This document shows positions 32,304 to 49,713 of a stretch of 64,000 nt of DNA, piece after piece (positions within the stretch are counted from its first letter, which is position 1; each line of letters starts with the position of its first letter). Origin of the DNA: Candidatus Saccharimonadota bacterium (GTDB taxonomy: Bacteria > Patescibacteriota > Saccharimonadia > Saccharimonadales > Saccharimonadaceae); the NCBI GenBank assembly GCA_017405265.1, contig JAFRAS010000007.1, positions 3,524 to 67,523 of the forward strand. The letters run 5' to 3'. The position numbers and the translations under genes are program-made. The notes beneath the pieces were generated by a model, which saw only the letters and a list, made by a program, of their open reading frames with translations, ran no database searches and was not told the origin of the DNA.

Positions 32304-34719
32304 TCTGAAACGCACTATTCTTCTGGCCTTAATTTTTGCGATTTTCTTAACTTCCTCCTTCGATGTCGCCCTGACTCTCGAACTCTTCGGCTTCACCTTC
32401 CGCCTGACCCAACTTCTGTCAATTGTTTTAATGTTAATAATTGGAATTCAAATTATTATCAAACGTCGCGTCGAAAAGCCTCTGGGTCTAAGATATCTTA
32501 TTTTCTGGATAATCCTATTATTACTCTTTACGTTTAATACAATTTTACCGAAAACGAACTTAGCTTACGACGCCTGGGCAGTTTTCAACGTTGCCCTCGT
32601 CTTCGCCTTCGTGAACCTCCCGCGCGAAAAACTCCTTTTCCACGAAGTTTTGCGTCTCTATATCTTCTCCTTCCTCGTCATGGCGCTTTTTGGCATCCTC
32701 GAATTCATCTTGGGTGCTGCCGGCACCAACTTCCCCTACATTACTCAGTGGTGGAGCGCGACCCTCCCCCGCGTGAACGGCCTCTGTTTTGAGCCGTCCT
32801 ATTTCTCGTCTTACATGCTGATCGGCTGGGCGCTGACTCGCTACCTGATTCACAAAAAATACCCCTTCGCCCGCCACCCCTATCTCATTCTTGTCGCTAT
32901 CGTCCTCTCACTCGCCCTCTCTTCTTCTCGGATGGGTCTTCTCGTGATGACTATTTTTGAACTCATCTTCGGTGTTGTCTCTGTCATCCGCACGAAAAAA
33001 CCGCTCCTCCCGCTTGCGAGTTTCGTCATAACCGTCGCCCTCGCCTTCGGTCTGCCTTACCTTAACGCACGTATCTTCACACCTTCTGGCGGCGAATCCG
33101 CCGAGGAATCTTTCTCTCGCATCATGGACGGCACTGGCATCGGCGGCACCTCCTCGCACTCCTCCGCCGAGCGTATCGACTCCCTGAAGGACACCCTCGC
33201 CGTCTTCCTCGACTCCCCGATTTTGGGTCGCGGTTTTGGCGGCACTTTCGTCGAAATTGCCAAAAAACACGACCTCGACCCCGCGAAAATCTCTCTGCAG
33301 GATGAAGCAGGCAGTATGAACATCACCGCCGAAATTCTCGCCGCCACCGGCATTTTCGGCTTTATCGCCCTTCTTTTCTATCTCGCCGCTCTCTATTCCT
33401 CTCCTCGTCGCCTTTCCGCCGCGCATAAAACCGCCAGCAATTCTCTCGCTCCTTTGAAAGGTCTCCTCTTCGCCCTCCTCATCACCCTCATCATGTTCCA
33501 ACTGAACCAGAACCCCCTCCGTCCCTACATCTGGCTACTTATTGCGATGGTTTCCTACGCTTACGCGACTTTGAATGCCACTCTCCCCCCGAAAAAACAC
33601 CCGAAAATCGCCGTTGACGCCCGAATGCTAAAAATGTCCGGCATCGGCACCTATCTTAAAAATCTCGTTAAAAATGGTTGTTACGACCTCACTCTCGGCG
33701 CCCCCGAGCCGACCGGACTAAAAAACATCCCCTATAACGCTAATATATACGGCATAAAAGAACAGCTAAAATTCCCATATCTTAAACTCTGGCGCGAAAA
33801 CCCCGCCCTCCTCCACTGCCCGCACTACAACATTCCGCTTTTCTACTCCGGAACTCTCGTCACGACCGTCCACGACCTGACCCACCTAAAATACCCCGAA
33901 TTTTTACCTAACAAATTCGGCTACCTCTACGCCCGTTTCATGCTCGGCCGCGCCGTAAAAAAATCCACTCTCGTCCTCACCGTCTCCGAGAACACGAAAA
34001 AAGATATTCTCGAGTATTACCACGTCAACCCTGACAAGATTATTGTGATTCCGAACGGCGTCTCGATAGATTTTAAGCGCTTGCGCAAGGAAGGAACTTT
34101 TGCGACAACGTGCGACGACGTGGAGCACATTAGCGACGAGCCGCGTAACGACGCGCGCGAGGAGCATGTCGCAAAAGTTTCTTCCTTGGGTAGCAAGCGC
34201 GTATTATTGTATGTCGGGAATCTGAAGCCGCACAAGAATCTCAAAAATCTCTTGAAGGCCTTCGCAAAACTCGAAAACCGCGACGATTTGACCTTGCGTC
34301 TCGTCGGCAAATCTTTCGATAATTACAACATTCTCGACAAATTGCCAAAAAAGTTAGGAATTGAGAAAAATCTCGAAATCCTGGGCGAAAAATCCTCCGA
34401 CGAACTCGTAAAAATCTATAATGAAGCCGACCTCTTCATCTTCCCGTCTCTCTACGAAGGCTTCGGCCTCCCCATTCTCGAATCTCTCCGCTGCGGCACT
34501 CCCGTCGTCTGCTCGAACACTTCCTCCCTTCCCGAAGTCGGCGCTGACCTCGTCTCCTACTTCGACCCCACCTCCCCCTCCGACATGGCGCGCGTCATCT
34601 CCGCCCACCTCGACGACAAACTCACCTTCGACTACCAAAAAGCCAAAAAACACTGCGACGCCTTCTCTTGGAAATCTTCCGTTGAGAAAACAAAATCTGC
34701 TTTTAGAGAAGCGCTTTAG
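32290..34719 (+). CDS. O-antigen ligase/polymerase-like membrane domain fused to GT4 glycosyltransferase
   Basis: About 12 TM with R.NGL.FEPS, SSR.G, PILGRGFG; then DARM..SGIGTY, PHKN, YEGFGLPILE. Confidence 0.85.
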   Translation: MKSFNLKRTILLALIFAIFLTSSFDVALTLELFGFTFRLTQLLSIVLMLIIGIQIIIKRRVEKPLGLRYLIFWIILLLLFTFNTILPKTNLAYDAWAVFNVALVFAFVNLPREKLLFHEVLRLYIFSFLVMALFGILEFILGAAGTNFPYITQWWSATLPRVNGLCFEPSYFSSYMLIGWALTRYLIHKKYPFARHPYLILVAIVLSLALSSSRMGLLVMTIFELIFGVVSVIRTKKPLLPLASFVITVALAFGLPYLNARIFTPSGGESAEESFSRIMDGTGIGGTSSHSSAERIDSLKDTLAVFLDSPILGRGFGGTFVEIAKKHDLDPAKISLQDEAGSMNITAEILAATGIFGFIALLFYLAALYSSPRRLSAAHKTASNSLAPLKGLLFALLITLIMFQLNQNPLRPYIWLLIAMVSYAYATLNATLPPKKHPKIAVDARMLKMSGIGTYLKNLVKNGCYDLTLGAPEPTGLKNIPYNANIYGIKEQLKFPYLKLWRENPALLHCPHYNIPLFYSGTLVTTVHDLTHLKYPEFLPNKFGYLYARFMLGRAVKKSTLVLTVSENTKKDILEYYHVNPDKIIVIPNGVSIDFKRLRKEGTFATTCDDVEHISDEPRNDAREEHVAKVSSLGSKRVLLYVGNLKPHKNLKNLLKAFAKLENRDDLTLRLVGKSFDNYNILDKLPKKLGIEKNLEILGEKSSDELVKIYNEADLFIFPSLYEGFGLPILESLRCGTPVVCSNTSSLPEVGADLVSYFDPTSPSDMARVISAHLDDKLTFDYQKAKKHCDAFSWKSSVEKTKSAFREAL
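34077..34200. repeat. Intragenic coding palindrome, divergent family B copy
   Basis: CAAGGAAGGAACTTTTGCGACA / TGTCGCAAAAGTTTCTTCCTTG arms; core GACAACG..CATTAGCG..CGT(A/G)ACGACG..TGTC. Confidence 0.85.
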
Positions 34720-34882
34720 AGGAGAGGACTTCTTTCGAGTCTCGCTCTTTAAGATTCGCGACGGGAAAATGTATATTCCTGACGGACCCGACAGGTTCGT
34801 CCCGAAGGGACGGTTCTGTCGGCGTCCCAGCGTATGACATTTTCCCGAGCGAGTCGCGTAGCGAGAGAGAAGTCCTCTCCTC
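34719..34882. repeat. 164-bp intergenic imperfect palindrome
   Basis: GAGGAGAGGACTTCT/AGAAGTCCTCTCCTC, CGGGAAAATGT/ACATTTTCCCG, apex CGTCCC-GAA-GGGACG. Confidence 0.88.
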
Positions 34883-34911
34883 AAACAGAAGTGTGTTATA
34901 ATAAAGGTATT

Positions 34912-36213
34912 ATGTTACCAGAAGATTTAAAACAGCGCCTCGTCGCATCCCCCGAAAAAATCGTCCACATCGTCGTCATCGGCACGAAACCCGATATTAT
35001 AAAACAAGCCCCCCTGATCCACGAACTCTCCCGCGAGAACAAACTCTTCCTCGTCTGCCACACTGGCCAACATTACGATTACGCTTCTTCCGAAGGTGCC
35101 CTGAATGAATTTGATTTAAAGGTCGACATTAATCTCGAGATAAAAGCCGACACTCTCCCCGAGAAATTGGCCGGCATCGCCGAAAAATTCGGCGCGCTGA
35201 TCTCCGAAATCGTCGCGCTCGGCAAAACCCCGGTGCCCTACGTCCACGGTGACACTCTGACCGCCTCCGCCGCCGCCCTCGGCTCTGCCTATTCTCGCGT
35301 CCCCCTGGCGCACGTCGAAGCGGGCCTTCGCACTCTCTCCCCGCGCTCCGAAATCTTCAAAAAACATCTTCTCGATTTTAACTCCGGTGCCTTTTCTTTC
35401 GAAAACTACTGTGCCGACCTAAAAAACCGCGACAACTACGAAATCGGCTCCTTCGAGCCTTACCCGGAACAAATCGACACTCGCCTCGTTGATCAAATCT
35501 CCGGCTTCAAATTCGCTCCCGTCGAGCTGAATCGTGACATGCTGATTAACGAGCAGCAGGGAAGCGACAAAAATATTTACGTCGTCGGGAACACTATCGC
35601 CGACGCCGTCGCCGAGTCTCTGGCCCGCGGCTCCGACCTTACCGTCCCCTTTGACGATTATCTCCTCTTCTCTGTCCACCGTCGCGAAACCTGCGAAGAC
35701 GAAACCCGTTTCCGAATGATTTACGACGCGATTCAAAACTTGACAAATTCGGGAAACCGTGCTATAATTATTAAATTAGCTATGTTTGTCCAGGCCATGG
35801 ACAAATTCCTCTCCGAGGCGGAGAAAAACGAGCTTAAAAACAACAAAAACATCCTCCTCCTGGACCCACTCGCTCGCCACTCTGACTTCCTGAAACTGAT
35901 GCAAAACGCCCGCCTCGTCGTCGCCGACTCCGGCGGCATCCAAGAAGAAGCGACCGTGATGGGCGTGAAACAGGTTACCCTCCGCTTCGGCTCCGACCGC
36001 CCCGAAACCCTCTTCTCCGGCCACAACATCTTGGCGCCTCTGATCGGTAAAGATTTCATCCGCACGATTATCGAGAATTCTCTCACCGTCGAAAACCCGA
36101 AAGCCCCCCTCTACGGCGAAAATGTCTCCGCGAAGATGCTCGCCCTCGTCGACGCTCACTTCGCCCCCTCCCGCATCTTTCTCTCCGAAGAACAAAAATT
36201 CTTCGGCGCCTAA
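34912..36213 (+). CDS. wecB: UDP-N-acetylglucosamine 2-epimerase
   Basis: GTKPDIIK, HTGQHYD, VHGDT, HVEAGLR, DSGGIQEEA; start placed at ATG after TGTTATAAT. Confidence 0.92.
   Translation: MLPEDLKQRLVASPEKIVHIVVIGTKPDIIKQAPLIHELSRENKLFLVCHTGQHYDYASSEGALNEFDLKVDINLEIKADTLPEKLAGIAEKFGALISEIVALGKTPVPYVHGDTLTASAAALGSAYSRVPLAHVEAGLRTLSPRSEIFKKHLLDFNSGAFSFENYCADLKNRDNYEIGSFEPYPEQIDTRLVDQISGFKFAPVELNRDMLINEQQGSDKNIYVVGNTIADAVAESLARGSDLTVPFDDYLLFSVHRRETCEDETRFRMIYDAIQNLTNSGNRAIIIKLAMFVQAMDKFLSEAEKNELKNNKNILLLDPLARHSDFLKLMQNARLVVADSGGIQEEATVMGVKQVTLRFGSDRPETLFSGHNILAPLIGKDFIRTIIENSLTVENPKAPLYGENVSAKMLALVDAHFAPSRIFLSEEQKFFGA
35740..35768 (+). promoter_or_regulatory. Consensus promoter internal to wecB
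   Basis: TTGACA-17bp-TATAAT with TG extension. Confidence 0.6.
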
Positions 36214-36216
36214 AAA

Positions 36217-36309
36217 AGTTTTTTCAGGTTTTTCCTCCAAAAACCCGAAAAACTTCCCATTTTCACCCACTTTTTCAGGTTTTTGCTTAATAAGCCCGAA
36301 AAACTTTTT
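36217..36309. terminator. Duplicated hairpins between convergent genes
   Basis: TTTTTCAGGTTTTT...CCCGAAAAAC occurs twice. Confidence 0.55.
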
Positions 36310-37222
36310 CCAAAGTTTTCTCAATCGGCGTTCCCGGGAAAAACTCCGCCACCGAACTGTTATCTGCGCAAATGAACGGTGTGTCCGCGGGGCGCATCTT
36401 CGCGGGATCCGTTTCTACGCGAATTTCTTTCTCTGAAAACGAAAGCAGAATATTTAAAATCTCGCGAATTTGATACGCTTTTCCCGACCCCACATTATAA
36501 ATCGGCTGCGCATTTTCCGTCTCGAGTAATTTTCGATAAACATGCACAACGTCCGAAACGTCCGAAAAATCACGATACGCCTCGAGATTCCCGACCCGAA
36601 GAACCGGCTCTCTCTCGCCCCTTTCGATTTCCGCAATCTGTTTCGCAAAACTCGGCACTACAAAATTCTCGGACTGCCCCACTCCAATATGATTAAATGA
36701 CCTTGTCAAAACGATTTTGAGTCCATATTTTTCAGCATAAAGTTTTGCAAAATTCTCCTGCGCAATCTTCGAAATGCCATAAGGATTATTCGAATCGACC
36801 GGGTCAGATTCTTTCAGTTTCAGATTTTCCGGAATTTCGCCTCGCACTACCGCCGCGAGTTCCTCTTCACTCGGCATTTTCGCGCGATATTCCTCGGACG
36901 AGCCGACAAAAAGCGACTTCGTCTCCGGCGAATATTTTCGAATCGCCTCGAGCAAGTTCAACGTTCCGCCGACATTCACGCTCATCGTTTTTGCCGGAAT
37001 CTGCCACGAAACTCCGACCGACGCAATCGCCGCGAGATTAACCAAAAAATCCGGCCGCGTCTCGCGAATTAACTTCTCTGCTACCTCGGCGTCCGTCACA
37101 TCAACCGACCGCGGGAACTGCTCCCCGAGGTCGCAGGGAATCACTTCGTAATCCCCCGAAAATTCTTCGATCAAATGCTTCCCGACAAACCCACCCGCTC
37201 CGAGAATTAGAACCTTTCGCAT
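36287..37222 (-). CDS. rmd: GDP-4-keto-6-deoxy-D-mannose reductase-like SDR
   Basis: GAGGFVG, SSEEY, YGISK, RSFNHIG.GQ, RDFSDV; adjacent to gmd. Confidence 0.8.
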   Translation of the reverse strand: MRKVLILGAGGFVGKHLIEEFSGDYEVIPCDLGEQFPRSVDVTDAEVAEKLIRETRPDFLVNLAAIASVGVSWQIPAKTMSVNVGGTLNLLEAIRKYSPETKSLFVGSSEEYRAKMPSEEELAAVVRGEIPENLKLKESDPVDSNNPYGISKIAQENFAKLYAEKYGLKIVLTRSFNHIGVGQSENFVVPSFAKQIAEIERGEREPVLRVGNLEAYRDFSDVSDVVHVYRKLLETENAQPIYNVGSGKAYQIREILNILLSFSEKEIRVETDPAKMRPADTPFICADNSSVAEFFPGTPIEKTLEKVFRAY

Positions 37223-37225
37223 TCC

Positions 37226-38266
<1,041 letters not shown>

Positions 38267-38279
38267 TTACTATTATACT

Positions 38280-39320
38280 TTATTCCGGCCGAAAATCACG
38301 AATTTTCCCCGCCGACTCCTTTTTGCACACCACGATTTCATTCTCCCCCTCAATCACATATAAATCCTCGACATCGACTAATATCACTCGTTTTTTCTCA
38401 CCGTAAACCACGCAATCTTTCGCCTCCGAGACTTCCACCTCGCCCTTTTTAATATTCCCGTCCTCGTCCGGTTTTACGTAGCGCAAAATCGACGCCCAAG
38501 TCCCAATGTCATCCCACCCGACATCAATCGGGTGGACAAACACTTCGTCTGATGTTTCGAGAATTGCATAATCAACCGAAATATTTTCACATTTATCATA
38601 ATTTTCCGCGAGTTTTGCCATAAAATCGGGAGAAGCCGCATTTGGCAACCCCATAATCACTTCGTGCGTCCGCCTCTGAAACTTAGAAAACGCCGAAATC
38701 ATATAATCCGTGTCAAAAATAAACATGCCGGCATTCCAGAGGTATCTCCCCGACGCGAGATATCCCTTCGCCGTCTCCTCGTCCGGTTTTTCGACAAATT
38801 TCTCAACTCTCCGAATTCCGCTCTCGACATCTTCGCCTGTCCGAATATATCCATACCCCGTTTCCGGTCGGTTCGGCTCAATCCCGAGCGTGCAAATCCC
38901 CGTTTTATGCATAAGCATAAAATTGACAGATTGTCCAATATCTTCTATAAACTTATCTTCATTCACAATCAGCTGGTCGCTCGGCAGTACCACCACCGTC
39001 GCTGGTCCCTTGAGGTCGCTAATATATTTCGACGCGAGTAGAATGCATGGCGCCGTGTTTCTCCCCGTCGGCTCCGCAACGATATTCTTGACCGGGAGAC
39101 TCGGTAACTGCTCCTTCACGAGGTCAATATACTTCGCCCCCGTCCCGACAAAAATATTTTTCTCCGGCAAAATTTTCCGACACCTGTCGTAAGTCTCCTG
39201 AAGCATCGTTTTTTCCGAAATCAACGCCAAAAACTGTTTCGGCTTCTCCTCTGTTGACTTCGGCCAAAACCGCGTCCCTCTCCCCCCCGCCATAATCAAA
39301 ATATAAAAATCTTCTCTCAT
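38280..39320 (-). CDS. manC: Mannose-1-phosphate guanylyltransferase
   Basis: MAGGRGTRFWP, PKQF, ETGYGYI, FVEKP, WNAGMF. Confidence 0.95.
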   Translation of the reverse strand: MREDFYILIMAGGRGTRFWPKSTEEKPKQFLALISEKTMLQETYDRCRKILPEKNIFVGTGAKYIDLVKEQLPSLPVKNIVAEPTGRNTAPCILLASKYISDLKGPATVVVLPSDQLIVNEDKFIEDIGQSVNFMLMHKTGICTLGIEPNRPETGYGYIRTGEDVESGIRRVEKFVEKPDEETAKGYLASGRYLWNAGMFIFDTDYMISAFSKFQRRTHEVIMGLPNAASPDFMAKLAENYDKCENISVDYAILETSDEVFVHPIDVGWDDIGTWASILRYVKPDEDGNIKKGEVEVSEAKDCVVYGEKKRVILVDVEDLYVIEGENEIVVCKKESAGKIRDFRPE

Positions 39321-39391: not shown

Positions 39392-40540
39392 ATGCGCATA
39401 GGAATTGACATTAACCCCCTGACCGAAACCCGCACTGGAGTCGGCAACTATCTTTACGAAATCCTACTTTGGCTAAACGAAAATGCCAAACACCACGAAT
39501 TTTTTCTCTATTCGCCCGCTTCCGATTATCTTGAGCTCCCGAAGCTCGGCAAAAATTTTCATTTAACGAAGCTTCAGTCCAAGCACCGCAACATCGCGAA
39601 TCAAACCGAGCTCCCGAAACTCTTGAAAAACGACCAAATCGAAGTTTTTTGGGGCTCCGCTTTCCATCTCCCCGCTCGCAATCGCTACACTAAAAACATC
39701 CGTTTCGTTCTCACTATTCATGACCTCTGGGCCGAATTCTCACCTCTCGCCCCGAAAAGCCTGAAACTCAACTTAATCGCCCACTTAATGCGTCGCGACG
39801 CCAAAAACGCCGACACGATTATCGCTATCTCTGAATACACCAAACGTGAAATCCGTCGTCACTACGGCATCCCAGCGAAAAAAATCCCCGTAACTTATCT
39901 CGCTCCCTCGACTTTTGACCAAAAAACTCCCACCCGCGCCGAAGAAACCAAAATCCTGAAAAAATACCACCTCGTAGACGACGACGGAAACCTAATCGAC
40001 TACCTTTTCTTCCTCTCCACTATCCAACCTCGTAAAAATCTCGACACCGCAATCAAAGCCTTTAATCTCTACAAATCCGAGCACGAAGGTTCGAATCTGA
40101 AATTCATCGTCGCCGGCAACCGTGGTTGGGGCTCGGACCAGACCTTCGAACTAATGGAAAACTCCCCCTATAAATCCGATATCATCCGCCCCGGCTACAT
40201 CACCACCGAAAAATCCGTTTTTTATCGCAACGCTCGTGCCTTCGTCTATCCCTCTCTTTGCGAAGGCTTCGGCCTCCCTGTTCTTGAGGCCTTCGCCTAT
40301 AATTGCCCCGTGATTACCGCGAAAAACTCCTCTCTCCCTGAAGTTGGCGGTGACGCCGCCTTTTACATCAACAAAGCCACCGACGAAAAATCCCTCGCTG
40401 CCCTAATCGAGACAGTCGTGAACCAGTCCGCTCTCTCTCGAGAAAAACGTATTTTGATGGGCAAAAAACAACTCTCGAAATTCTCTTGGGAAAAATGTGC
40501 TCGTGAAACTCTCGAAATTATAGAAGGGAATAAGAAATGA
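39392..40540 (+). CDS. GT4 glycosyltransferase
   Basis: TGVGNY, TIHDL, PRKN, EGFGLPVLEA. Confidence 0.92.
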   Translation: MRIGIDINPLTETRTGVGNYLYEILLWLNENAKHHEFFLYSPASDYLELPKLGKNFHLTKLQSKHRNIANQTELPKLLKNDQIEVFWGSAFHLPARNRYTKNIRFVLTIHDLWAEFSPLAPKSLKLNLIAHLMRRDAKNADTIIAISEYTKREIRRHYGIPAKKIPVTYLAPSTFDQKTPTRAEETKILKKYHLVDDDGNLIDYLFFLSTIQPRKNLDTAIKAFNLYKSEHEGSNLKFIVAGNRGWGSDQTFELMENSPYKSDIIRPGYITTEKSVFYRNARAFVYPSLCEGFGLPVLEAFAYNCPVITAKNSSLPEVGGDAAFYINKATDEKSLAALIETVVNQSALSREKRILMGKKQLSKFSWEKCARETLEIIEGNKK

Positions 40541-41616
40541 AGCTCGCTATCGACGCTCGCTTTGTCGGCAAAACCGGCATCGGCACTTATACCGCCAATC
40601 TCTTGAGGTCCGACCTCTATTCCGTCGCTCTCGGCGACCCGAAAATTTTAAAAGAATTTGGCAAAAAAGTCATCCCATTTACCGAAAAAGTCTATCATTT
40701 GGGCGAGCAAACTCATTTTCCGAAAAAGACCCTCGTCTCTGAAAAAATCGACCTGCTCCACGTCCCGCACTATAATATCCCTCTCTTTTACCGCGCCCCT
40801 CTCGCTGTCACTATTCACGACGTCACCCCAATCGCCTTTAGTCCCTATCATCGCTCAAAGCTCTATCCCTATACCATCTTTATGATAAAAGAGAGTCTGA
40901 AAAAAGCCGAAATTGTCTTCGCTCCCTCAAAATACAGCAAATCTGACCTCTTAAAATACTTCCCGAAGACGGACTCCGACAAAATTCACGTCATCTATAA
41001 CTCCGTTGACGACCGTTTCCGCCACAAATCCGCCAAAGAAGTTGCTTATTTATACCAAAAATACCCCAAAATTTCGCGCGACAAGGCCCTTCTGCTTTTT
41101 GTCGGCCTCCAGGCGGCTCACAAAAATTTGCCGATGCTTCTCGAGGCATTTAGAGCCCTCCCGCGCGACAAATATCAGCTTATCATCATCGGTGGCGGCA
41201 CTAAGGCCGAAATGGACGCCGTCGCCACCTCTGTTTCCTCCTCCGGGACTAAAAACGGCGTCGTTTTTACCGGTCATCTCACGCCGGACAAGATAATCGA
41301 CTTTTATAATCTCGTCGACCTCTTCGTCTTCCCCTCTCTGTACGAAGGCTTCGGCCTCCCCGTTCTCGAGGCTTTGAAATGTGGCACTCCTGTCGTTTCC
41401 TCGAATCTCACCTCTCTCCCCGAAGTTGGCGGGAAATTCGTCACTTATTGCGACCCGACCGACTCCTCCGACATTGCCGAAAAAATCAAAGAAACCGTGG
41501 GTAAACCCCTAAAATCAGGCCTCGACGCCTGGCTTTCCCAATTTTCCATCGAAGCCCAAGTCTCCGCCATGCAAAAAGTCTATCAAAAATACTCCAGGGA
41601 ACAACAAAATGCCTAA
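40537..41616 (+). CDS. GT4 glycosyltransferase
   Basis: DARF..TGIGTY, HKN, YEGFGLPVLEA. Confidence 0.92.
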   Translation: MKLAIDARFVGKTGIGTYTANLLRSDLYSVALGDPKILKEFGKKVIPFTEKVYHLGEQTHFPKKTLVSEKIDLLHVPHYNIPLFYRAPLAVTIHDVTPIAFSPYHRSKLYPYTIFMIKESLKKAEIVFAPSKYSKSDLLKYFPKTDSDKIHVIYNSVDDRFRHKSAKEVAYLYQKYPKISRDKALLLFVGLQAAHKNLPMLLEAFRALPRDKYQLIIIGGGTKAEMDAVATSVSSSGTKNGVVFTGHLTPDKIIDFYNLVDLFVFPSLYEGFGLPVLEALKCGTPVVSSNLTSLPEVGGKFVTYCDPTDSSDIAEKIKETVGKPLKSGLDAWLSQFSIEAQVSAMQKVYQKYSREQQNA

Positions 41617-42622
41617 AAAACTCCTCACCATTTCCATCGCCGCCTATAACGTCGAAAAAACCATCATAGAAACACTCGAGTCTCTCTTGATAAAAAATCT
41701 CGACCTCCTTGACGTTATAATCGTTAACGACGGCTCGACCGATTCAACGAAAGAATTGGTCGAAAATTTCATCAAAGAGCATCCCGGGTCTTTCCGCCTC
41801 ATTAATCAGAAAAACGGTGGCTACGGCTCCACTATAAACGCCTCCATCAAAAACGCCACCGGCAAATATTTCCGCCCTCTCGACGGCGACGACTGGGCCG
41901 ACTCTAAAAAGTTGGATAAATTTTGCGAAATATTAAAAGACGAAGATGGCGACCTTATTATTACTCCATTCAAAACCATTAACGAATCGACCGGCCAATC
42001 TTTTATCACTAATTTCGCCCACTCGTCTTTTTCGAACAAAAAAATCGACGCCGCTATTTCGGAGCTTGAGTCCTACGTCCCGATGCACTGCGTTACTTAT
42101 AAAACCTCACTCCTTCAAAAAAATCAAATTGCGCTCACCAGGCATTGTTTTTATACTGACACGGAATATGTTTTATTACCATTCAAATATGCGAAAACTG
42201 TATCCGCCTACAATCTCGCCATCTATCTCTACCGTTTTGGCACCGCCGAACAATCCGTCAGTCCCAAAAGCCGCGCCCGCCATTATGAAGATATGATTAC
42301 TGTAACCAAAAGATTCATCAATGATTTCTCCTCGTCACTTCGTCGCACGGAATCCGAATCATATATTAACGACTTCGTTATTGAACTTTGCGCCCGATGC
42401 TTCCTTAGTTTCCTTTTTATCTTAAAACCGACCAAAGCGCATTATACCGCTATTAAAAAATACCTAAAATTCATAGACGAAACTGACCCCAGTATCTTGC
42501 GTGTGCTCGAGAATAAATTCAGAACAGTTAGAACCGTCAATAAGGGAGGATATTTTTCCTATCTCATTGTTTTTCTTGTTACCAAATTTAAACAAATTAA
42601 ACACCGAGGGAACGCAAGATGA
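41609..42622 (+). CDS. GT2 glycosyltransferase
   Basis: AYNVE, VNDGSTD, NGGYG, LDGDD. Confidence 0.93.
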   Translation: MPKKLLTISIAAYNVEKTIIETLESLLIKNLDLLDVIIVNDGSTDSTKELVENFIKEHPGSFRLINQKNGGYGSTINASIKNATGKYFRPLDGDDWADSKKLDKFCEILKDEDGDLIITPFKTINESTGQSFITNFAHSSFSNKKIDAAISELESYVPMHCVTYKTSLLQKNQIALTRHCFYTDTEYVLLPFKYAKTVSAYNLAIYLYRFGTAEQSVSPKSRARHYEDMITVTKRFINDFSSSLRRTESESYINDFVIELCARCFLSFLFILKPTKAHYTAIKKYLKFIDETDPSILRVLENKFRTVRTVNKGGYFSYLIVFLVTKFKQIKHRGNAR

Positions 42623-44085
42623 CGAAGTCTATCAAAAAGAACTATCTCTATAATTTAATTTTCCAAATCCTCTCAGTTATTCTTCCGCTCATTACGACAC
42701 CGTATCTGTCTCACGTCCTGGGCTCCGAGCAGATAGGCGTTTACGGATTCACTCTTTCAATCGTAACTTATTTTGTGCTCGCCGGCTCACTTGGGGTTTC
42801 AATGTATGGTCAGCGCGAAATCGCACGTCTCCAAAACGACCCCAAAAAACGCACCCGCGCTTTTTGGCAAATCAACATTTTAAAATGGATTGCGACCGGA
42901 CTGTCTTTGATAATTTACTATTTCGCGTGTATTCAAAACACCGACTACGGCTTCTACTATAAGATTTTCACTCTCGAATTATTCGCAAACGCCATTGATA
43001 TCTCTTGGTTCTACCAAGGTATCGAGGAATTCCGCATCACCGTCATTCGCAACATCATTATAAAACTGCTAAGCCTAGTTTGTATCTTTATTTTTGTAAA
43101 AACGCCCAGCGACACGGGCATCTATATATTAATCTATTGCCTCTCGAACTTAATCAGCAACGGCTACCTCTGGATTATTCTCCCGAGATTTATAAAAAGA
43201 GTTCCGCTCCGTCTAAAAACCGCAAAAAAGCACTTAATGCCGATTTTTCTGATGTTTCTGCCCCAGGTCGCCGTCCAGATTTACACCGTTCTCGACCGCA
43301 CGATGCTCGGCGCTATCACCGGCGACATGCACGAAGTCGGCATATACGAACAATCCAATAAAATTAACCGCGCCGCCCAAACATTTGTCACTGCTCTCGG
43401 CGTAGTGATGCTGTCCCGCGTAGCCAGCTTATCTGTCAGTAAAAAAATAGACGAAATCCGCGCCATTATTAGCAAGGCCTTTCATTTGGTATGGCTTCTT
43501 GCACTGCCCATGGTGGCCGGCATTATCGCGGTCGCCCCGAATCTCGTCCCCTGGTTTTTGGGAGACGACTTTTTGAATGCTACTCAGGTTCTTCAAATTG
43601 GCTCGCTCTTGATTCTCGCCGTCGGTCTCAATAACGTATCTGGCATTCAATATCTGGTTGCTACCGGAAAGCAAAATCTCTTCACTATTAGCGTTATCGC
43701 CGGCGCTTTGGTTAATGCCATAGGAAATTTACTCCTCATCCCCACCCTCGGTGCCAAGGGAGCCATCATTTTCTCCGTCGTCGCCGAATTCACAATTTTG
43801 CTCATCCAGCTTATTATGATCCGAAAAACAGTTCGCTTAAGAGACGTTTTTGGGCGCTGCTGGCCGAATTTCCTAGCGAGCGCACTGATGTTTATAATCG
43901 TCTTTTTGCTCGGGCAAAAGTTATCTCCGAGCATCCCGCACACGATAATAATGGTTGCCGTAGGAGCGGCCATCTACGCCATCGTATTATTTACGACAAA
44001 AGACGAGCTGGTGTTTTCGGTACTATCCTCGATAAAAAATAAAATCATCACCCCACCCAATAAAAACAAAGGAACCTCAAAATGA
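42619..44085 (+). CDS. wzx: Wzx flippase
   Basis: SIKKNYLYNL..PLITTPYLS; 12-14 TM; LDRTMLG. Confidence 0.92.
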   Translation: MTKSIKKNYLYNLIFQILSVILPLITTPYLSHVLGSEQIGVYGFTLSIVTYFVLAGSLGVSMYGQREIARLQNDPKKRTRAFWQINILKWIATGLSLIIYYFACIQNTDYGFYYKIFTLELFANAIDISWFYQGIEEFRITVIRNIIIKLLSLVCIFIFVKTPSDTGIYILIYCLSNLISNGYLWIILPRFIKRVPLRLKTAKKHLMPIFLMFLPQVAVQIYTVLDRTMLGAITGDMHEVGIYEQSNKINRAAQTFVTALGVVMLSRVASLSVSKKIDEIRAIISKAFHLVWLLALPMVAGIIAVAPNLVPWFLGDDFLNATQVLQIGSLLILAVGLNNVSGIQYLVATGKQNLFTISVIAGALVNAIGNLLLIPTLGAKGAIIFSVVAEFTILLIQLIMIRKTVRLRDVFGRCWPNFLASALMFIIVFLLGQKLSPSIPHTIIMVAVGAAIYAIVLFTTKDELVFSVLSSIKNKIITPPNKNKGTSK

Positions 44086-46058
44086 ATGTAAAAGCGACTA
44101 TAAAGAAAATTATCCCAAGCTACATATTTTATAAACATCACGAACGAAAATATAAGAATGAACTGCAAGAGCGTTTTTCGAGCAACCATGTCCCAAATTC
44201 CGACGCCACAAGACTGAAAATCATTCGTTCCAAAGACGACTATTCTTCTCTAAAGAAATTAATGAAAACTGTACAGATAAATAGCAACACTTATTACTTT
44301 TACAGTCTGGACTATTTTACGCATATTTTTTCCCAGGGCGCCATTACCGACAACTTGACCATCGACTACAGTCTGGCCATGTTGCCACTTTCAGAGATAG
44401 AAAAAAATAATCAAAAACTGCGCAATTCCGATTCGATTTTCGAAGCCATCCGCGTTTACATTTCACGCGCCACAGAATATCTCCGCCAACATCCGAGTTC
44501 TCGCAACGACTTGCTCTGCTCGTATTTAGAAAACATCCTCGATTCCTCGCCGAAGTCATTTGACGAAGCCCTGCAACGTATTCTTTTTTACAATCAGCTC
44601 CTCTGGCAAACAGGCCACCGCTTGATGGGGCTTGGGCGTCTTGATTTAATTCTCTATCCTTATTACGAAAACGACATTAAATCCGGCCTTATTGATTCCA
44701 AAAAGGCCGCCTTTATGGTGTCCGAATTCATGAAAACCCTGCACAAAGACTATGTCTTCAAAAGCAATGCGCTCCTTGGTGACACCGGCCAACTCATTAT
44801 TCTCGGCGGCTACGACAAAAAGGGTCGAACCGTATCGAACGCTTTGACTAAAATTTTTATCACCGTAGCAGGCGAACTTCAGCTCCCAGATCCGAAGATT
44901 TTGTTGCGTGTCACAAAAGATACAAATCGCGAGATTTTTTCGCTATCTCTTAAAAGTATTCAATCCGGTCTCGGTTTTCCTCTTTTTGCCAACGACGAGG
45001 TCATAATTCCAAGCCTCATTTCTTCTGGATTTGACAAAGAAGACGTTTGGAACTACGCTACCTCCGCCTGTTGGGAACCAATCATCCCGTCCAAAAGCAC
45101 CGACCATAACAACTATAGCAATATAATCTTATTAGAGCCACTGCATCGTATTTTAGACGAAGAAGATTTGTCAAAAATCGACGACTTTTCTTCACTATTA
45201 TCAATATATAAAAAATGCCTAAAAAATTATGTCACAGACATGATGGAGGAAAGTATGGGGCTCCGCCTCGCGTTCGACCCGCTTTTATCTATTTTTACCT
45301 CTGGCGGCAAAAAGCATAAAGATATTGCCGAGGGCGGCGCCAAATATAACAATATTGGCTACCTCAGCCTTTCTTTTGGAAATCTAATAAACTCCTTACT
45401 TATCATAAAAAAATATGTCTTTGAAGATAAAAAATACACGCTGGCGGAATTAGACGAGCTTCGCAAAAAAGAAAAGATGCCGACTCTTCCGGTTTTCCCA
45501 GAATTCGGTTGCGATGATGCCGAAATTATTAACCTAACCAACTCGATTATGGCGGTAATTTCTGAAACTTTGAAGGGGAGAAAAAATAGTCTGGGAGGAT
45601 TTTACAAAGTCGGCTACAGCTCCCCATCTTACATCTCGGCCTCCAGCCAAACCTCAGCGTCTTTTGACGGTCGCAAAAATGGCGACCCTTTCATGGTCCA
45701 CATTTCTACTAATGCCGCGCTCTCTTACACCGAGCTGATGTCTTTTGCCGGCAAACTAAAATATTCAAACTCGGTGTGTAACGGCAACGTCCTGGATTTT
45801 ATCGTGTCGCGCGACTTTATTGATAATAACTTTGACAAATTTGTTGACTTTTTAATGTTTAGCACCGAAAGTGGCTATTTCGAAACGCAAATGAACGTGA
45901 CGAGCTCGAAGCTCCTCATTGAAGCCAAGAAAAATCCCAAAAAGTTCCCCAATCTCATCGTTCGCGTTTGGGGCTTTTCCGCCTACTTTAATGATCTGCC
46001 GGAAGAATATAAAAATGTGCTCATCGAGCGCGCCCTAAAAAGCGAAGGTAAAAAATGA
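44082..46058 (+). CDS. Glycyl radical enzyme (PFL superfamily), unassigned subclass
   Basis: GRLDLILYPYY, single-Cys loop SACWEP, C-terminal LIVRVWGFSAYF. Confidence 0.9.
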   Translation: MNVKATIKKIIPSYIFYKHHERKYKNELQERFSSNHVPNSDATRLKIIRSKDDYSSLKKLMKTVQINSNTYYFYSLDYFTHIFSQGAITDNLTIDYSLAMLPLSEIEKNNQKLRNSDSIFEAIRVYISRATEYLRQHPSSRNDLLCSYLENILDSSPKSFDEALQRILFYNQLLWQTGHRLMGLGRLDLILYPYYENDIKSGLIDSKKAAFMVSEFMKTLHKDYVFKSNALLGDTGQLIILGGYDKKGRTVSNALTKIFITVAGELQLPDPKILLRVTKDTNREIFSLSLKSIQSGLGFPLFANDEVIIPSLISSGFDKEDVWNYATSACWEPIIPSKSTDHNNYSNIILLEPLHRILDEEDLSKIDDFSSLLSIYKKCLKNYVTDMMEESMGLRLAFDPLLSIFTSGGKKHKDIAEGGAKYNNIGYLSLSFGNLINSLLIIKKYVFEDKKYTLAELDELRKKEKMPTLPVFPEFGCDDAEIINLTNSIMAVISETLKGRKNSLGGFYKVGYSSPSYISASSQTSASFDGRKNGDPFMVHISTNAALSYTELMSFAGKLKYSNSVCNGNVLDFIVSRDFIDNNFDKFVDFLMFSTESGYFETQMNVTSSKLLIEAKKNPKKFPNLIVRVWGFSAYFNDLPEEYKNVLIERALKSEGKK

Positions 46059-46795
46059 TAATCACTAACATCCAGAGATTCTGTCTCCAAGACGGCCCCG
46101 GAATTAGAACCACGGTTTTCTTGAAAGGTTGCCATTTGCGCTGCCCATGGTGTTCGAATCCCGAGACTCAGGAGCGCGAAATCCAGACATCCATAGACGG
46201 CGATCAAATTTTTGGAAAAGAATATTCAGCGGACGAAGTTTTCGAGATTATAAAAAAAGACAAGACTTATTACAAAAACGGCGGCGGCGTTACTTTTTCT
46301 GGCGGCGAGCCAATTTGGTGGATCGACGAACTAATCCCGCTTTTTGAAAAAATTCATAAAATCGGAGCAACTATCGCCGTCGAAACCACCGGCAGCGTCC
46401 CGCGTCCTTTTTACGAAAAAGCGCTACCATATATCGACTATTATCTCGTCGATTTAAAAATTCTCGTCTCAAAAGATGCCGAAAAAATCCGCCTCGACCC
46501 AAACGTGTACCAAAAAAACATCAAATGGCTGCTCTCGAAAAAATGCAAGCTCAATTTTCGCACCCCGCTCGTCCCCGGCTTCACTTTCACAAAAGAAAAT
46601 ATCAAACTGATTAAAAAATTTTTATCCGAAAACAATATTACGGAACTCGAAGTTTTTGAAACGCACGAATTTGGCAAGCAAAAATATGAACTCCTCGGCC
46701 GAAAGATGCAACATTTTTCAAATCTCACCAAAGAAGATTATAATTTTCTGGAAAAAACTCTCTCTCCGATAAAAGTGAAATATCTAAAGTGGTAG
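46055..46795 (+). CDS. GRE-activating radical SAM enzyme
   Basis: DGPGIRTTVFLKGCHLRCPWCSNPE, GGVTFSGGEP. Confidence 0.94.
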   Translation: MIITNIQRFCLQDGPGIRTTVFLKGCHLRCPWCSNPETQEREIQTSIDGDQIFGKEYSADEVFEIIKKDKTYYKNGGGVTFSGGEPIWWIDELIPLFEKIHKIGATIAVETTGSVPRPFYEKALPYIDYYLVDLKILVSKDAEKIRLDPNVYQKNIKWLLSKKCKLNFRTPLVPGFTFTKENIKLIKKFLSENNITELEVFETHEFGKQKYELLGRKMQHFSNLTKEDYNFLEKTLSPIKVKYLKW

Positions 46796-46814
46796 TTCGT
46801 GTTATAATTATCTC

Positions 46815-47942
46815 ATGGACAAATATGACTTCCTCATCATCGGCTCTGGCATCTTCGGTGCTACTGTTGCCGAGCGCCTGAAATCCGCCGGAAAAAAAGT
46901 TCTCGTCATCGACCGCCGCGCCCACCTCGCCGGCAATATTTACTCCTATATGGACGAAAAAACCGGCATCGAAGTCCACGCCTACGGCTCCCATATTTTC
47001 CACACTGAATCTGACGAAGTCTGGGATTATATCACTAAGTTCGCCGATTTTAACGATTACGTCCACACTGTCCACACTCGCCACGACGGCAAGCTCTACC
47101 CCATGCCCATCAACCTCGACACAATTAATCTGTTCTATGGCACGAATTTATCCGCCGCCGAGGCCGAAAAATTCATTAAACAAAAAGCCGAAAAAATCGA
47201 CCGCCCGAAAAACTTCGCCGAACAAGCCAAATCTCTCGTCGGCACCGAACTTTTCGAAGCTTTCTTAAAAAACTACACCGAAAAACAGTGGCGCGACTCC
47301 GCCGAACATCTCCCCGCCGCCCTCCTCTCGCGCATCCCCGTCCGCTTCTCCTCCGACGCCCGCTATTTTATGTCCGCGAAGCATCAGGGCATCCCGAAAA
47401 ACGGCTACACGAACCTTATCAAAAACCTCTTAAAAGGCATTGATTATAAATTAAATACCAGCTTCAAAGACCTCGAGCCGAGCCTAAAAAACCAAACTAT
47501 AATCTACACCGGCGCCATCGACGAGCTCATGGACTACGAATTTGGCGCTCTCCCCTATCGCTCCCTCCGTTTCGAAACCGAAACCGTCGAAAACTCGGCA
47601 CAAAAAGAAGCCGTGATTAACGAGGCCGACGCCGACGTCCCCTACACCCGCACCCACTCTTATAAATACTACCAAATCCACTCCCCCGAAATCATCAACC
47701 AACCTCTCTCGGTCATCTCCCGCGAATACCCCGCCGACTTCAAAATCGGTGCCGAAGCCTACTACCCTGTAAACAACGAAGATTCCGAGGCTCTGTATCA
47801 AAAATATTTGAGTGCCGCGCGCGAAAAATACCCGAACATGTACTTCGGCGGCCGTCTTGGCGCCTTCCGCTACTGGGACATGGACATCGCCGTAAAAAAC
47901 GCCCTTGACCTGTCAGAAAAAATTTTAAAGGAGACGAAATGA
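46815..47942 (+). CDS. glf: UDP-galactopyranose mutase
   Basis: GSGIFG, HAYGSHIFHT, YTEKQW, LPYRSL, YYPVN, GRLG. Confidence 0.95.
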   Translation: MDKYDFLIIGSGIFGATVAERLKSAGKKVLVIDRRAHLAGNIYSYMDEKTGIEVHAYGSHIFHTESDEVWDYITKFADFNDYVHTVHTRHDGKLYPMPINLDTINLFYGTNLSAAEAEKFIKQKAEKIDRPKNFAEQAKSLVGTELFEAFLKNYTEKQWRDSAEHLPAALLSRIPVRFSSDARYFMSAKHQGIPKNGYTNLIKNLLKGIDYKLNTSFKDLEPSLKNQTIIYTGAIDELMDYEFGALPYRSLRFETETVENSAQKEAVINEADADVPYTRTHSYKYYQIHSPEIINQPLSVISREYPADFKIGAEAYYPVNNEDSEALYQKYLSAAREKYPNMYFGGRLGAFRYWDMDIAVKNALDLSEKILKETK

Positions 47943-48964
47943 ATATCCTCTTGACCGGCGGCACCGGCTATATCGGTTCCCACGCCGCCGTCGAACTTTT
48001 GAACCTCAGCCACGACCTTACTCTGCTCGACAATCTGAGCAATAGTAAGCCAACTGTCGTCGAAAAAATCGCCGAAATCACCAAAAAATCCCCCGAATTT
48101 ATAAAAATCGACCTGCTCGACGAGCCGAGCCTTAATGATTTTTTCCAAAATCACTCTTTCGACCTCGTCATCCACTTCGCCGGCAAAAAGGCCGTCGGTG
48201 AATCCGTCGAAAAACCGCTCGAATACTACGAAAACAACGTAAAAGGCTCGATTAACCTCTTCAAAGCCATGTCGAGACACGGCATAAAGAAGCTCATTTT
48301 TTCCTCCTCTGCCACCGTTTATGGCATGCGTGATGTCGAAAAATTCACTGAAGACATGGAAACCGGCATGAATATCAGCTCCCCCTACGGCCGCTCGAAA
48401 TTCATGATTGAAGAAATTTTGAAAGACCTCGCCGCCTCCGACCCGGACTGGCAAATTTCACTCCTGAGATATTTTAACCCAATAGGGAACCATCCCTCCG
48501 GTCTCATCGGCGAAGACCCGAACGGCACCCCGAATAACTTAATGCCGATTATTATGAAAGTCGCAAAGGGCGAAATCCCCGAGCTGAAGATTTATGGCAC
48601 CGATTACGACACCGAAGATGGCACCTGTCTTCGCGATTATATCCACGTCGTCGACCTTGCGAAAGGCCACGTCGCCGCGATGAACTACCTCTCGCCTGGC
48701 GTCTCGATTTATAACCTCGGCTCCGGCGTCGGCACCTCGGTGAAAGAAATGGTCGAGGCTTTCGAATTCGCCTCGGGAAAACCTCTCCCCCACTCTTTCG
48801 CTCCCCGTCGCCCCGGCGACATCGCCCGCATCATTGCCGACCCGGCGAAAGCCAACCGTGAGCTAAACTGGCGTACTACCCTCTCAGTCAAAGACGCCAT
48901 GAAAGACACGCTTACTTTTCTCAAAAAATCCCCCGCGAGCAGGGAGAACAACTATATACCCTAA
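47939..48964 (+). CDS. galE: UDP-glucose 4-epimerase
   Basis: GGTGYIGSH, KAVGESV, RYFNPIG, RDYIHVVDLA. Confidence 0.96.
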   Translation: MNILLTGGTGYIGSHAAVELLNLSHDLTLLDNLSNSKPTVVEKIAEITKKSPEFIKIDLLDEPSLNDFFQNHSFDLVIHFAGKKAVGESVEKPLEYYENNVKGSINLFKAMSRHGIKKLIFSSSATVYGMRDVEKFTEDMETGMNISSPYGRSKFMIEEILKDLAASDPDWQISLLRYFNPIGNHPSGLIGEDPNGTPNNLMPIIMKVAKGEIPELKIYGTDYDTEDGTCLRDYIHVVDLAKGHVAAMNYLSPGVSIYNLGSGVGTSVKEMVEAFEFASGKPLPHSFAPRRPGDIARIIADPAKANRELNWRTTLSVKDAMKDTLTFLKKSPASRENNYIP

Positions 48965-49011
48965 TTATACCACACTTTCCATTTTTTGTCAACTGATGCT
49001 ATAATTTTCTT

Positions 49012-49713
49012 ATGAAATCTAAAGAAGAGCCCACCTCCCGCCACCAGGATGCTACGGTCCCCGCAGACTACCCCTATAACAAGCGCCCGAACCCCCTCGA
49101 GAGACTAATTTACTTCCTCCTCTTCCTCTACGCGAAATTTCACCTAAAATTCATCTTGAAAACCACTGTAAAAAACAAGAAAATCCTCCCGAAAAACTCC
49201 CCCTTCTTCCTCTACGCGAACCACACCCAACCCCTCGGCGACCCCTTCCTCGCCGTCACTCTGTTCTACCCGAACACCCCCCGCGTCCTCGTCTCCCCGG
49301 CGAACCTCGGGATTCCTTTCATCGGCCGCTTTCTCCACCTCGCCGCCCTCCCCATCCCGAGCGACTTGAAAACCCTGAAGCGCTTCAATCGCGCTTTGAA
49401 AGACGCTTACGAAACCAATCACCCCATCATCATCTTCCCCGAGGCCCACGTCCTCCCTTATTGCCCGATCATCCGCGAAATCTCCGAAAAATCCTTCCGC
49501 CCCGCCGCGAAACTCCGCTCCGACGTTTACGTCATGACCACGACCTACAAAAAGCCCAAATTCGGCAAAAAACCGAGAATTATCGTCCACCTCGACGGCC
49601 CCCTCTCCCCCGACCCTGCCAAAACCGCCTCTGAAAACGCCTCCTTCCTCTGCACCACTACCCTCAAAACCCTCCACTCTCGCACCAAAAACAATTACAT
49701 CTATTACCCATGA
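49012..49713 (+). CDS. PlsC-like glycerolipid acyltransferase
   Basis: ANHTQPLGD and IFPE blocks. Confidence 0.78.
   Translation: MKSKEEPTSRHQDATVPADYPYNKRPNPLERLIYFLLFLYAKFHLKFILKTTVKNKKILPKNSPFFLYANHTQPLGDPFLAVTLFYPNTPRVLVSPANLGIPFIGRFLHLAALPIPSDLKTLKRFNRALKDAYETNHPIIIFPEAHVLPYCPIIREISEKSFRPAAKLRSDVYVMTTTYKKPKFGKKPRIIVHLDGPLSPDPAKTASENASFLCTTTLKTLHSRTKNNYIYYP

Follow-up and report, generated by a model that had tools for sequence, protein, structure and literature searches.

What would a glycyl radical enzyme (GRE) do in an operon for a surface polysaccharide? The question is raised by a 64,000-nt stretch of contig JAFRAS010000007.1 (hereafter the window; all gene coordinates are positions in it), which carries a short GRE of 658 amino acids (44082-46058, plus strand) and a radical S-adenosylmethionine (SAM) activase of 246 amino acids (46055-46795, plus strand). 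A GRE and its activase form a textbook pair. An earlier reading of this DNA, made from the sequence only, had placed the pair at these positions inside a polysaccharide operon, where we also found it within a nine-gene glycan operon. That sequence-only reading had further stated that characterised GREs are catabolic or reduce nucleotides. The statement agrees with a June 2026 review, in which all characterised pyruvate formate-lyase (PFL)-like GREs are catabolic and the class III ribonucleotide reductase (RNR) reduces nucleotides (PMC13450708). We propose, with moderate confidence, that the window GRE would perform radical C-O chemistry on a galactofuranose (Galf) unit before the unit is flipped, within a dedicated surface-glycan module.

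Sequence and predicted fold of the enzyme

The GRE matched the PFL-like (PF02901, 1.8e-56) and Gly_radical (PF01228, 9.6e-10) families of Pfam. Its short length, the single Cys of its SACWEP motif (C330), and the Trp of its RVWGF motif (628-632, including G631) had been pointed out before, and the motifs define a family in 59 representatives. A329, C330, W331, R628, V629, W630, G631, and F632 were invariant in all 59, and E332 was retained in 57, giving a Cys-x-Glu (CxE) motif (C330-W-E332).

The AF2 model of the GRE, made with an alignment of 59 relatives, was confident (pLDDT 93.3, pTM 0.93). Its nearest solved folds in Foldseek were GRE dehydratases and related enzymes, namely propanediol dehydratase, glycerol dehydratase, PflD, CutC, and YbiW (TM 0.74-0.80, 19-23% identity). 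The GRE shares the ten-stranded barrel fold of glycerol dehydratase (1R8W/1R9D) and 1,2-propanediol dehydratase (5I2G), with Foldseek E-values of 3e-35 to 3e-34 and TM 0.76-0.77, but it is ~130 amino acids shorter and 22-23% identical to them. The best sequence match among solved structures was PflD (profile E 1e-91). PflD and YbiW (8ID0, 8YJO, 8ID7) have ~770-810 amino acids and are 20-22% identical to the GRE.

The GRE did not cluster with a characterised GRE class. It scored 223 bits against TIGR01774 (PFL2-3; cut-off 678), and it stayed far below all equivalog cut-offs, including those of CutC (131 vs 1050), HypD (129 vs 1100), and sulfopropanediol dehydratase (154 vs 1000). The score against pyruvate formate-lyase (TIGR01255) was 37 bits vs 994, and the single Cys of ACWEP stands where no Cys-Cys pair is present. 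The ESM Atlas offered only generic 'PFL family' names. The GRE is an intact member of a distinct, uncharacterised family of ~660 amino acids.

Genomic neighborhoods of the family

The family is sizeable, with over 120 clusters (42-54% identity) in a 90% library, 78 representative clusters with E < 1e-100, and 272 loci in a collection of one genome per species. It occurs in gut and rumen Clostridia, Bacilli, Negativicutes, Eggerthellaceae, Muribaculaceae, Breznakiella, and one Methanobrevibacter clade. Neighborhoods were counted in the 80 best loci, which stem from Bacillota of gut and rumen, Methanobrevibacter, and others.

An activase adjoins the GRE in 77-79 of these 80 loci. One lineage of Wzx-type flippases, 40-51% identical to the window Wzx (42619-44085, plus strand; PF01943, 2e-29), adjoins it in 53-56. 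The homologs did not lie outside polysaccharide loci: besides the activase, the recurrent neighbors that could be annotated were Wzx, Glf, family 2 glycosyltransferases (GT2s), DUF4422/GT111 proteins, an initiating sugar transferase, and GalE, all glycan genes and all co-directional with the GRE. GT111/DUF4422 was found in 25 related loci and Bac_transf in 8, and about 8 loci have a full-length relative of the window GT2 (34-39% identity) upstream of the GRE. For two smaller groups of recurrent neighbors, seen in 17 and 12 loci, Pfam gave only weak matches. Natural fusions carry the GRE and a glycan protein in a single chain, as GT2-GRE, GT8-GRE, and Wzx-GRE, the last with the same Wzx lineage. 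Across loci, the identity of the GRE to its window counterpart correlates with that of Wzx (r = 0.71, n = 49); together with the linkage, this divergence pattern indicates that Wzx, GRE, and activase behave as one heritable unit. Taken as a whole, these neighborhoods argue that the family is dedicated to surface-polysaccharide biosynthesis.

The N-terminal 40 residues, predicted as basic helices, had a net charge of at least +3 in 58 of 59 representatives (family median +8), whereas the whole GRE protein has a net charge of about 0 per 40 residues. The basic N-terminus and the Wzx fusions suggest a membrane-proximal enzyme.

The boundary of the family was set by more distant enzymes. A single-sequence locus search returned mostly GREs of at most 32% identity without ACWEP/RVWGF, and these were excluded from the counts. 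A tblastn search beside these distant GREs found no match to the window Wzx, Glf, GT2, or GT4. We placed the boundary here because the distant GREs lack both the motifs and the glycan neighbors. Two Eubacteriales metagenome-assembled genomes hold 3-4 paralogous distant GREs each (24-29% identity, without ACWEP/RVWGF) with two activases within 20 kb; these multi-GRE loci belong to a different type, probably a catabolic one. Inside the family, a Lachnospiraceae subclade has no adjacent Wzx, and an overlapping conserved protein of ~144 amino acids (12 loci) precedes the GRE instead. This protein had only a weak 2-Hacid_dh_C match and may represent a partner of the GRE or part of a reductase.

Active-site residues

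Residue equivalences were taken from a profile alignment to glycerol dehydratase and PflD and read against conservation in the 59 representatives, and the geometry of the pocket was deduced through that alignment. Cys433, Glu435, Gly763, and His281 of glycerol dehydratase correspond to C330, E332, G631, and H179 of the GRE. The RVWGF motif aligns with RVAGY of glycerol dehydratase as an RVxG glycyl loop, and the NDEVIIP, DGR, and QxN motifs are kept. Like glycerol dehydratase, the GRE also has a radical-SAM activase next door.

The surroundings of these residues are different. The general-acid His164 of glycerol dehydratase is Asn91 in the GRE (Asn in 54 of 59 representatives), Tyr339 is Gly236, His446-Asp447 is Asn343-Asn344, and Tyr640 is deleted. 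Trp residues stand beside the radical Cys and Gly (Val434 to Trp331 and Ala762 to Trp630). PflD, the PflD/YbiW enzyme covered by the alignment, retains the Gly-His, His-Asp, and Tyr residues that the family is missing, and the Gly-His motif is present in propanediol dehydratase as well; PflD and the GRE have Thr-Gly 235-236 in common. Four residues are family-specific: Asp234, Lys272, and Asp572, which are invariant, and His540, which is present in 57 of 59 representatives. We take Tyr339, Asp447, and Tyr640 of glycerol dehydratase to be the lining of the small-diol pocket, and the GRE has none of the three. Its pocket would be larger than that of glycerol dehydratase or different from it. From the retained CxE motif, the enzyme is predicted to act like a CxE eliminase or isomerase, yet it falls outside every characterised class.

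These residues bear on the idea that the GRE converts a small diol or polyol to a substituent that is not a carbohydrate and is later attached to the glycan. The enzymes nearest by structure and NCBIfam are diol dehydratases with the same CxE motif, and one related locus encodes a cytidylyltransferase-domain protein. The replacement or deletion of His164 and of the presumed pocket residues argues against the idea, as does the lack of a conserved aldehyde-handling enzyme near the GRE in the 80 loci. The GT and Wzx fusions and the basic N-terminus point instead to a glycan or lipid-linked substrate. We consider such a small-diol substrate very improbable.

Linkage to galactofuranose genes

The window GRE and its activase are followed by the gene for UDP-galactopyranose mutase, Glf (46815-47942, plus strand; TIGR00031, 327 bits vs a cut-off of 304). 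We examined whether the family is generally linked to Galf in the 38 loci whose flanks extend for 8 kb or more on both sides of the GRE. A glf gene is near the GRE in 27 of these 38 full-flank loci, and glf or DUF4422/GT111 is within 10 kb in 32. DUF4422 is the GT111 galactofuranosyltransferase domain (PMC12269835). As a control, PF01943 loci, glf, GT111, and GRE were mapped in five well-assembled carrier genomes: glf or GT111 was within 10 kb of 5 of 6 GRE-linked Wzx loci, vs 2 of 13 Wzx-type loci without GRE. In two Clostridia genomes of 1.6-1.7 Mb, the sole glf adjoins the GRE. Breznakiella has two GRE copies, each with its own wzx and glf. The physical linkage of the GRE to Galf genes is clear.

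The cassettes of Breznakiella homolactica RmG30 (NZ_CP067089.2, ~2,884,600-2,916,800) are two complete glf-activase-GRE-wzx sets, 27 kb apart. They hold both PF01943 matches (E <= 1e-5) and both glf genes of the 4.6 Mb genome. In Lachnospiraceae MGYG-HGUT-00136, a glf in two fragments (182785-183470 of a contig of that genome) lies ~40 kb from the GRE locus, and an intact copy is on another contig.

Several points weigh against our proposal of chemistry on Galf in a dedicated module. Neither glf nor GT111 is nearby in 6 of the 38 full-flank loci. A glf gene is present in 225 of 251 (90%) Lachnospiraceae genomes; this makes co-occurrence at the genome level uninformative, and we therefore used physical linkage alone. 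With five genomes, the control is small, and the loci in it are related rather than independent. Some of the Wzx-GRE fusions could be frameshift artefacts of an ATGA overlap between the two genes. The first two points also favor the possibility that the enzyme tailors the glycan on a repeat-unit sugar or nucleotide sugar other than Galf, for example by C-O cleavage in a pyranose ring as in PflD and YbiW or by 2- or 3-deoxygenation, with the glf linkage reflecting how common Galf is in the glycans of these organisms. The substrate of PflD, the best sequence match among solved structures, is a pyranose-like anhydro-sugar phosphate, and the fusion partners include GT8 and varied GT2s. However, glf or GT111 is physically linked to the GRE about five times as often as to the control Wzx loci, the two small genomes have their only glf next to the GRE, and in the window a foreign module stands exactly at a native glf (see below). 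We hold a non-Galf substrate to be an unlikely but serious alternative.

Possible reaction and its place in glycan assembly

Our proposal of radical chemistry on a Galf unit would run as follows. Glf would make UDP-galactofuranose, and the activase, with SAM and a [4Fe-4S] cluster, would install the radical on Gly631, as has been shown for GREs generally. The substrate would be UDP-Galf or, more likely, an undecaprenyl-diphosphate-linked repeat unit at the inner face of the membrane, where the GRE would sit near Wzx and the glycosyltransferases. Cys330 would take a hydrogen from a carbinol carbon of the Galf unit, and Glu332 would deprotonate a hydroxyl group, leading to the breakage of the beta C-O bond. 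The dedicated Wzx would then flip the modified unit.

A comparable sequence is known for sugar-like rings. PflD and YbiW convert 1,5-anhydromannitol-6-phosphate and 1,5-anhydroglucitol-6-phosphate to 1-deoxyfructose-6-phosphate through hydrogen abstraction at the carbinol carbon, Glu-assisted deprotonation, and C-O cleavage (PMC13450708). Unlike the window GRE, those enzymes are catabolic ('anhydroglycolysis') and unlinked to glycosyltransferases, Wzx, and glf. Likewise, the window GRE differs from the glycerol and propanediol dehydratases in its anabolic rather than catabolic context.

The most economical case would be dehydration of the exocyclic C5-C6 diol to a deoxy-oxo furanose, since the enzymes nearest to the GRE act on glycerol, propanediol, and dihydroxypropanesulfonate, of which the C5-C6 diol of Galf is a structural analog. 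By this analogy, dehydration is our best guess, but one that is rather unlikely to be right. Two observations speak against it. The general-acid His of the dehydratases and isomerases is Asn here, a poor fit to hydroxide elimination unless His540 or His179 substitutes. In addition, no reductase or oxidase is conserved beside the GRE in the 80 loci, which would leave a reactive oxo-sugar to be used unchanged. Because of the lost His and the missing redox partner, other options stay open: ring C-O isomerisation of the PflD/YbiW type, radical inversion at C5 to L-altrofuranose, or a non-Galf substrate.

L-Altrose is the C5 epimer of D-galactose, and we know of no assigned pathway for it. It has been reported in a rumen Butyrivibrio exopolysaccharide (PMC4392319); no Butyrivibrio locus was among the 80 best loci.

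The sequence-only reading had suggested a role in making or modifying a glycan building block. The dedication of the family to glycan loci supports this; the reaction itself we infer from motifs and neighborhoods. In a more specific version, which is conceivable though we would not rely on it, the enzyme would be the first anabolic PFL-like GRE, working at the membrane on Galf either by dehydration of the 5,6-diol to a deoxy-oxo-hexofuranose or by C5 inversion to L-altrofuranose, in a plug-in module with its own flippase. Such a module would have spread through Bacillota, Spirochaetota, Bacteroidota, and methanogenic archaea, and now to an episymbiont of the candidate phyla radiation.

The activase

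The activase matched Fer4_12 and Radical_SAM of Pfam. It exceeded the cut-off of TIGR02494 (213 vs 174 bits), but in two separate stretches, the larger of which restarts at profile position 98 (residue 51 of the activase). The ferredoxin-like insert is missing, because the match skips that part of the profile. The protein has five Cys, three of them in CX3CX2C. An activase without the insert had been proposed from the sequence, and these data agree with it. In its size (~246 amino acids), its single CX3CX2C cluster, and its lack of an auxiliary-cluster domain, the activase is like PflA-type activases. Unlike them, it is below the PflA equivalog cut-off (131.6 vs 231.75 bits) and nearer to TIGR02494. 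Since it is closer in sequence to TIGR02494 than to PflA, it looks like a dehydratase-type activase that lost its ferredoxin insert, which the glycerol and propanediol dehydratase activases have.

Organization of the operon

The operon consists of nine tightly packed plus-strand genes, GT4-GT4-GT2-wzx-GRE-activase-glf-galE-acyltransferase (39392-49713). It begins with two GT4 glycosyltransferases (39392-40540 and 40537-41616; Pfam), followed by the GT2 (41609-42622; Pfam), which is the first gene of a low-GC block that composition marks as acquired. The pair of interest and glf are followed by UDP-glucose 4-epimerase GalE (47939-48964; NCBIfam and similarity to congeners) and a PlsC-type acyltransferase of native GC content (49012-49713; Pfam). 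The overlaps that the sequence-only reading had described are present: ATGA at 44082-44085 is common to the wzx stop and the GRE start, and ATGA at 46055-46058 is common to the GRE stop and the activase start. A purine-rich stretch resembling a ribosome-binding site precedes both starts. The two GT4 genes, the second GT4 and GT2, GT2 and wzx, and glf and galE also overlap, and 19 nt separate the activase from glf.

The remaining glycan locus (31209-39320) has genes on both strands. A GT4, a Wzy_C-GT4 fusion of 809 amino acids (32290-34719), and a UDP-GlcNAc 2-epimerase are joined by divergent minus-strand genes for ManC, Gmd, and an Fcl-like protein, a GDP-6-deoxyhexose pathway. Wzx, the Wzy_C protein, and the GT4 and GT2 genes together identify a Wzx/Wzy-dependent locus. 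No initiating phosphoglycosyl transferase was among the 20 window open reading frames (ORFs) scanned, and the genome outside the window was not searched for it. With Wzx, the Wzy_C protein, GT2, GT4, Glf, and GalE, the locus is like Wzx/Wzy-dependent Galf polysaccharide loci. It differs in the GRE, the activase, and the particular Wzx lineage, which form a transferable unit. To our knowledge, radical enzymes are absent from all loci of this kind described so far.

Other features were seen at the ends of the locus. Directly upstream, a 1255-amino-acid ORF (27402-31169, plus strand) had no Pfam match at E <= 1e-4. On the minus strand, 48992-48920 holds a perfect sigma-70 consensus (TTGACA-17-TATAAT with TG) whose end coincides with the galE stop. 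This consensus is followed, ~17 nt downstream, by a hairpin (48947-48929) that is rich in GC and has a T-run, and the pair would yield an antisense transcript of ~40 nt against the 3' end of galE. The same layout is found in a promoter-hairpin pair opposite the MazF gene (50210-50136).

Host genome and origin of the module

At 85.6% completeness, the host genome measures 519 kb, and the glycan locus makes up ~3% of it. Its histidyl-tRNA synthetase (HisRS) is 47-51% identical to those of rumen and gut Saccharibacteria, and the comparisons place the host among the Saccharibacteria, near Candidatus Nanosyncoccus. Searches for the GRE family were negative in 35 congeners, 24 further families of the order, and 400 other genomes of the class (186 genera). 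Glf is native to the genus, being present in 13 of 36 congeners, of which six have it at 64-68% identity, near galE and GT2s; no GRE or activase was beside glf in the congeners with Glf. GalE, likewise native, is 58-63% identical to congeners. The window Wzx has two weak congeneric relatives only (35-37%) and resembles the cassette Wzx of Bacillota.

Composition gave a similar division. GT2, GRE, and activase rank in the lowest 2.4-3.3% of the genome by GC content and Wzx in the lowest 6.8%, whereas Glf and GalE are ordinary (31st-36th percentile). In the tree, the window GRE is sister (support 97) to one Lachnospiraceae and one Bacillales sequence, with 52-53% identity. On the simplest reading, GT2-wzx-GRE-activase (41609-46795) would be a module from an unsampled gut anaerobe, inserted upstream of a native glf-galE. 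The landing of a foreign module beside a native glf is circumstantial evidence that the module is functionally tied to UDP-Galf. We also considered, and rejected, a chimeric contig: the downstream glf, galE, and HisRS genes are Saccharibacterial by similarity, and the upstream operon genes have a host-like composition.

The host has a second glycyl radical system, nrdD with an adjacent nrdG-like activase gene, which makes a supply of SAM and reductant possible. Flavodoxin was not found in the host genome, which at 85.6% completeness is not evidence of its absence. The sole metK-like gene (89476-90438 of a contig of the host genome) scored 270 bits vs a cut-off of 309; its ORF has 331 amino acids, and stops were reported within the match or at its ends. 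The genome keeps two SAM-dependent activases despite this sub-threshold metK-like gene.

A foreign block in a small genome may also mean that the GRE and activase are passengers, a catabolic or decaying pair that was carried in along with wzx and serves no function in the Saccharibacterium. The GC content (lowest 2-7% of the genome), the lack of family members found among the 400 class relatives, the undetected flavodoxin, and the weak metK-like score fit a passenger. However, both ORFs are intact with all family-invariant residues kept, and both are translationally coupled within the operon. The family was never in a catabolic context in the 80 loci, and a host that maintains NrdD and an NrdG-like activase must have SAM and reductant available. 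We regard a passenger as extremely improbable. The sequence-only reading had called a GRE unexpected in a metabolically minimal organism. The 519 kb genome is indeed that of a Saccharibacterium, but glycyl radical chemistry was already present in it, and horizontal acquisition into a genome already running NrdD/NrdG explains the finding.

Implications

The June 2026 review divides GREs into RNR, formate lyases, decarboxylases, X-succinate synthases, eliminases, isomerases, and AAREs, and the words polysaccharide, glycan, UDP, and biosynthetic or biosynthesis are absent from it (PMC13450708). Literature searches that paired glycyl radical with polysaccharide biosynthesis, glycosyltransferase, capsule, nucleotide sugar, galactofuranose, or flippase returned nothing relevant, and we found no paper describing the ACWEP/RVWGF family. 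The presence of this family in a Nanosyncoccus-like Saccharibacterium is new here.

If a GRE does act in glycan assembly, a biosynthetic role would be added to these enzymes, and probably a new sugar to the surface chemistry of bacteria and archaea. A glycan made in this way would be strictly dependent on anoxia. The cultured carriers [Clostridium] aerotolerans DSM 5434 and Breznakiella homolactica RmG30 make the question directly testable. The module moves between gut and rumen anaerobes of different domains and is found here in an ultrasmall Saccharibacterium. Surface glycans could plausibly govern how such episymbionts attach to their hosts and how they are recognised by phages and the immune system.

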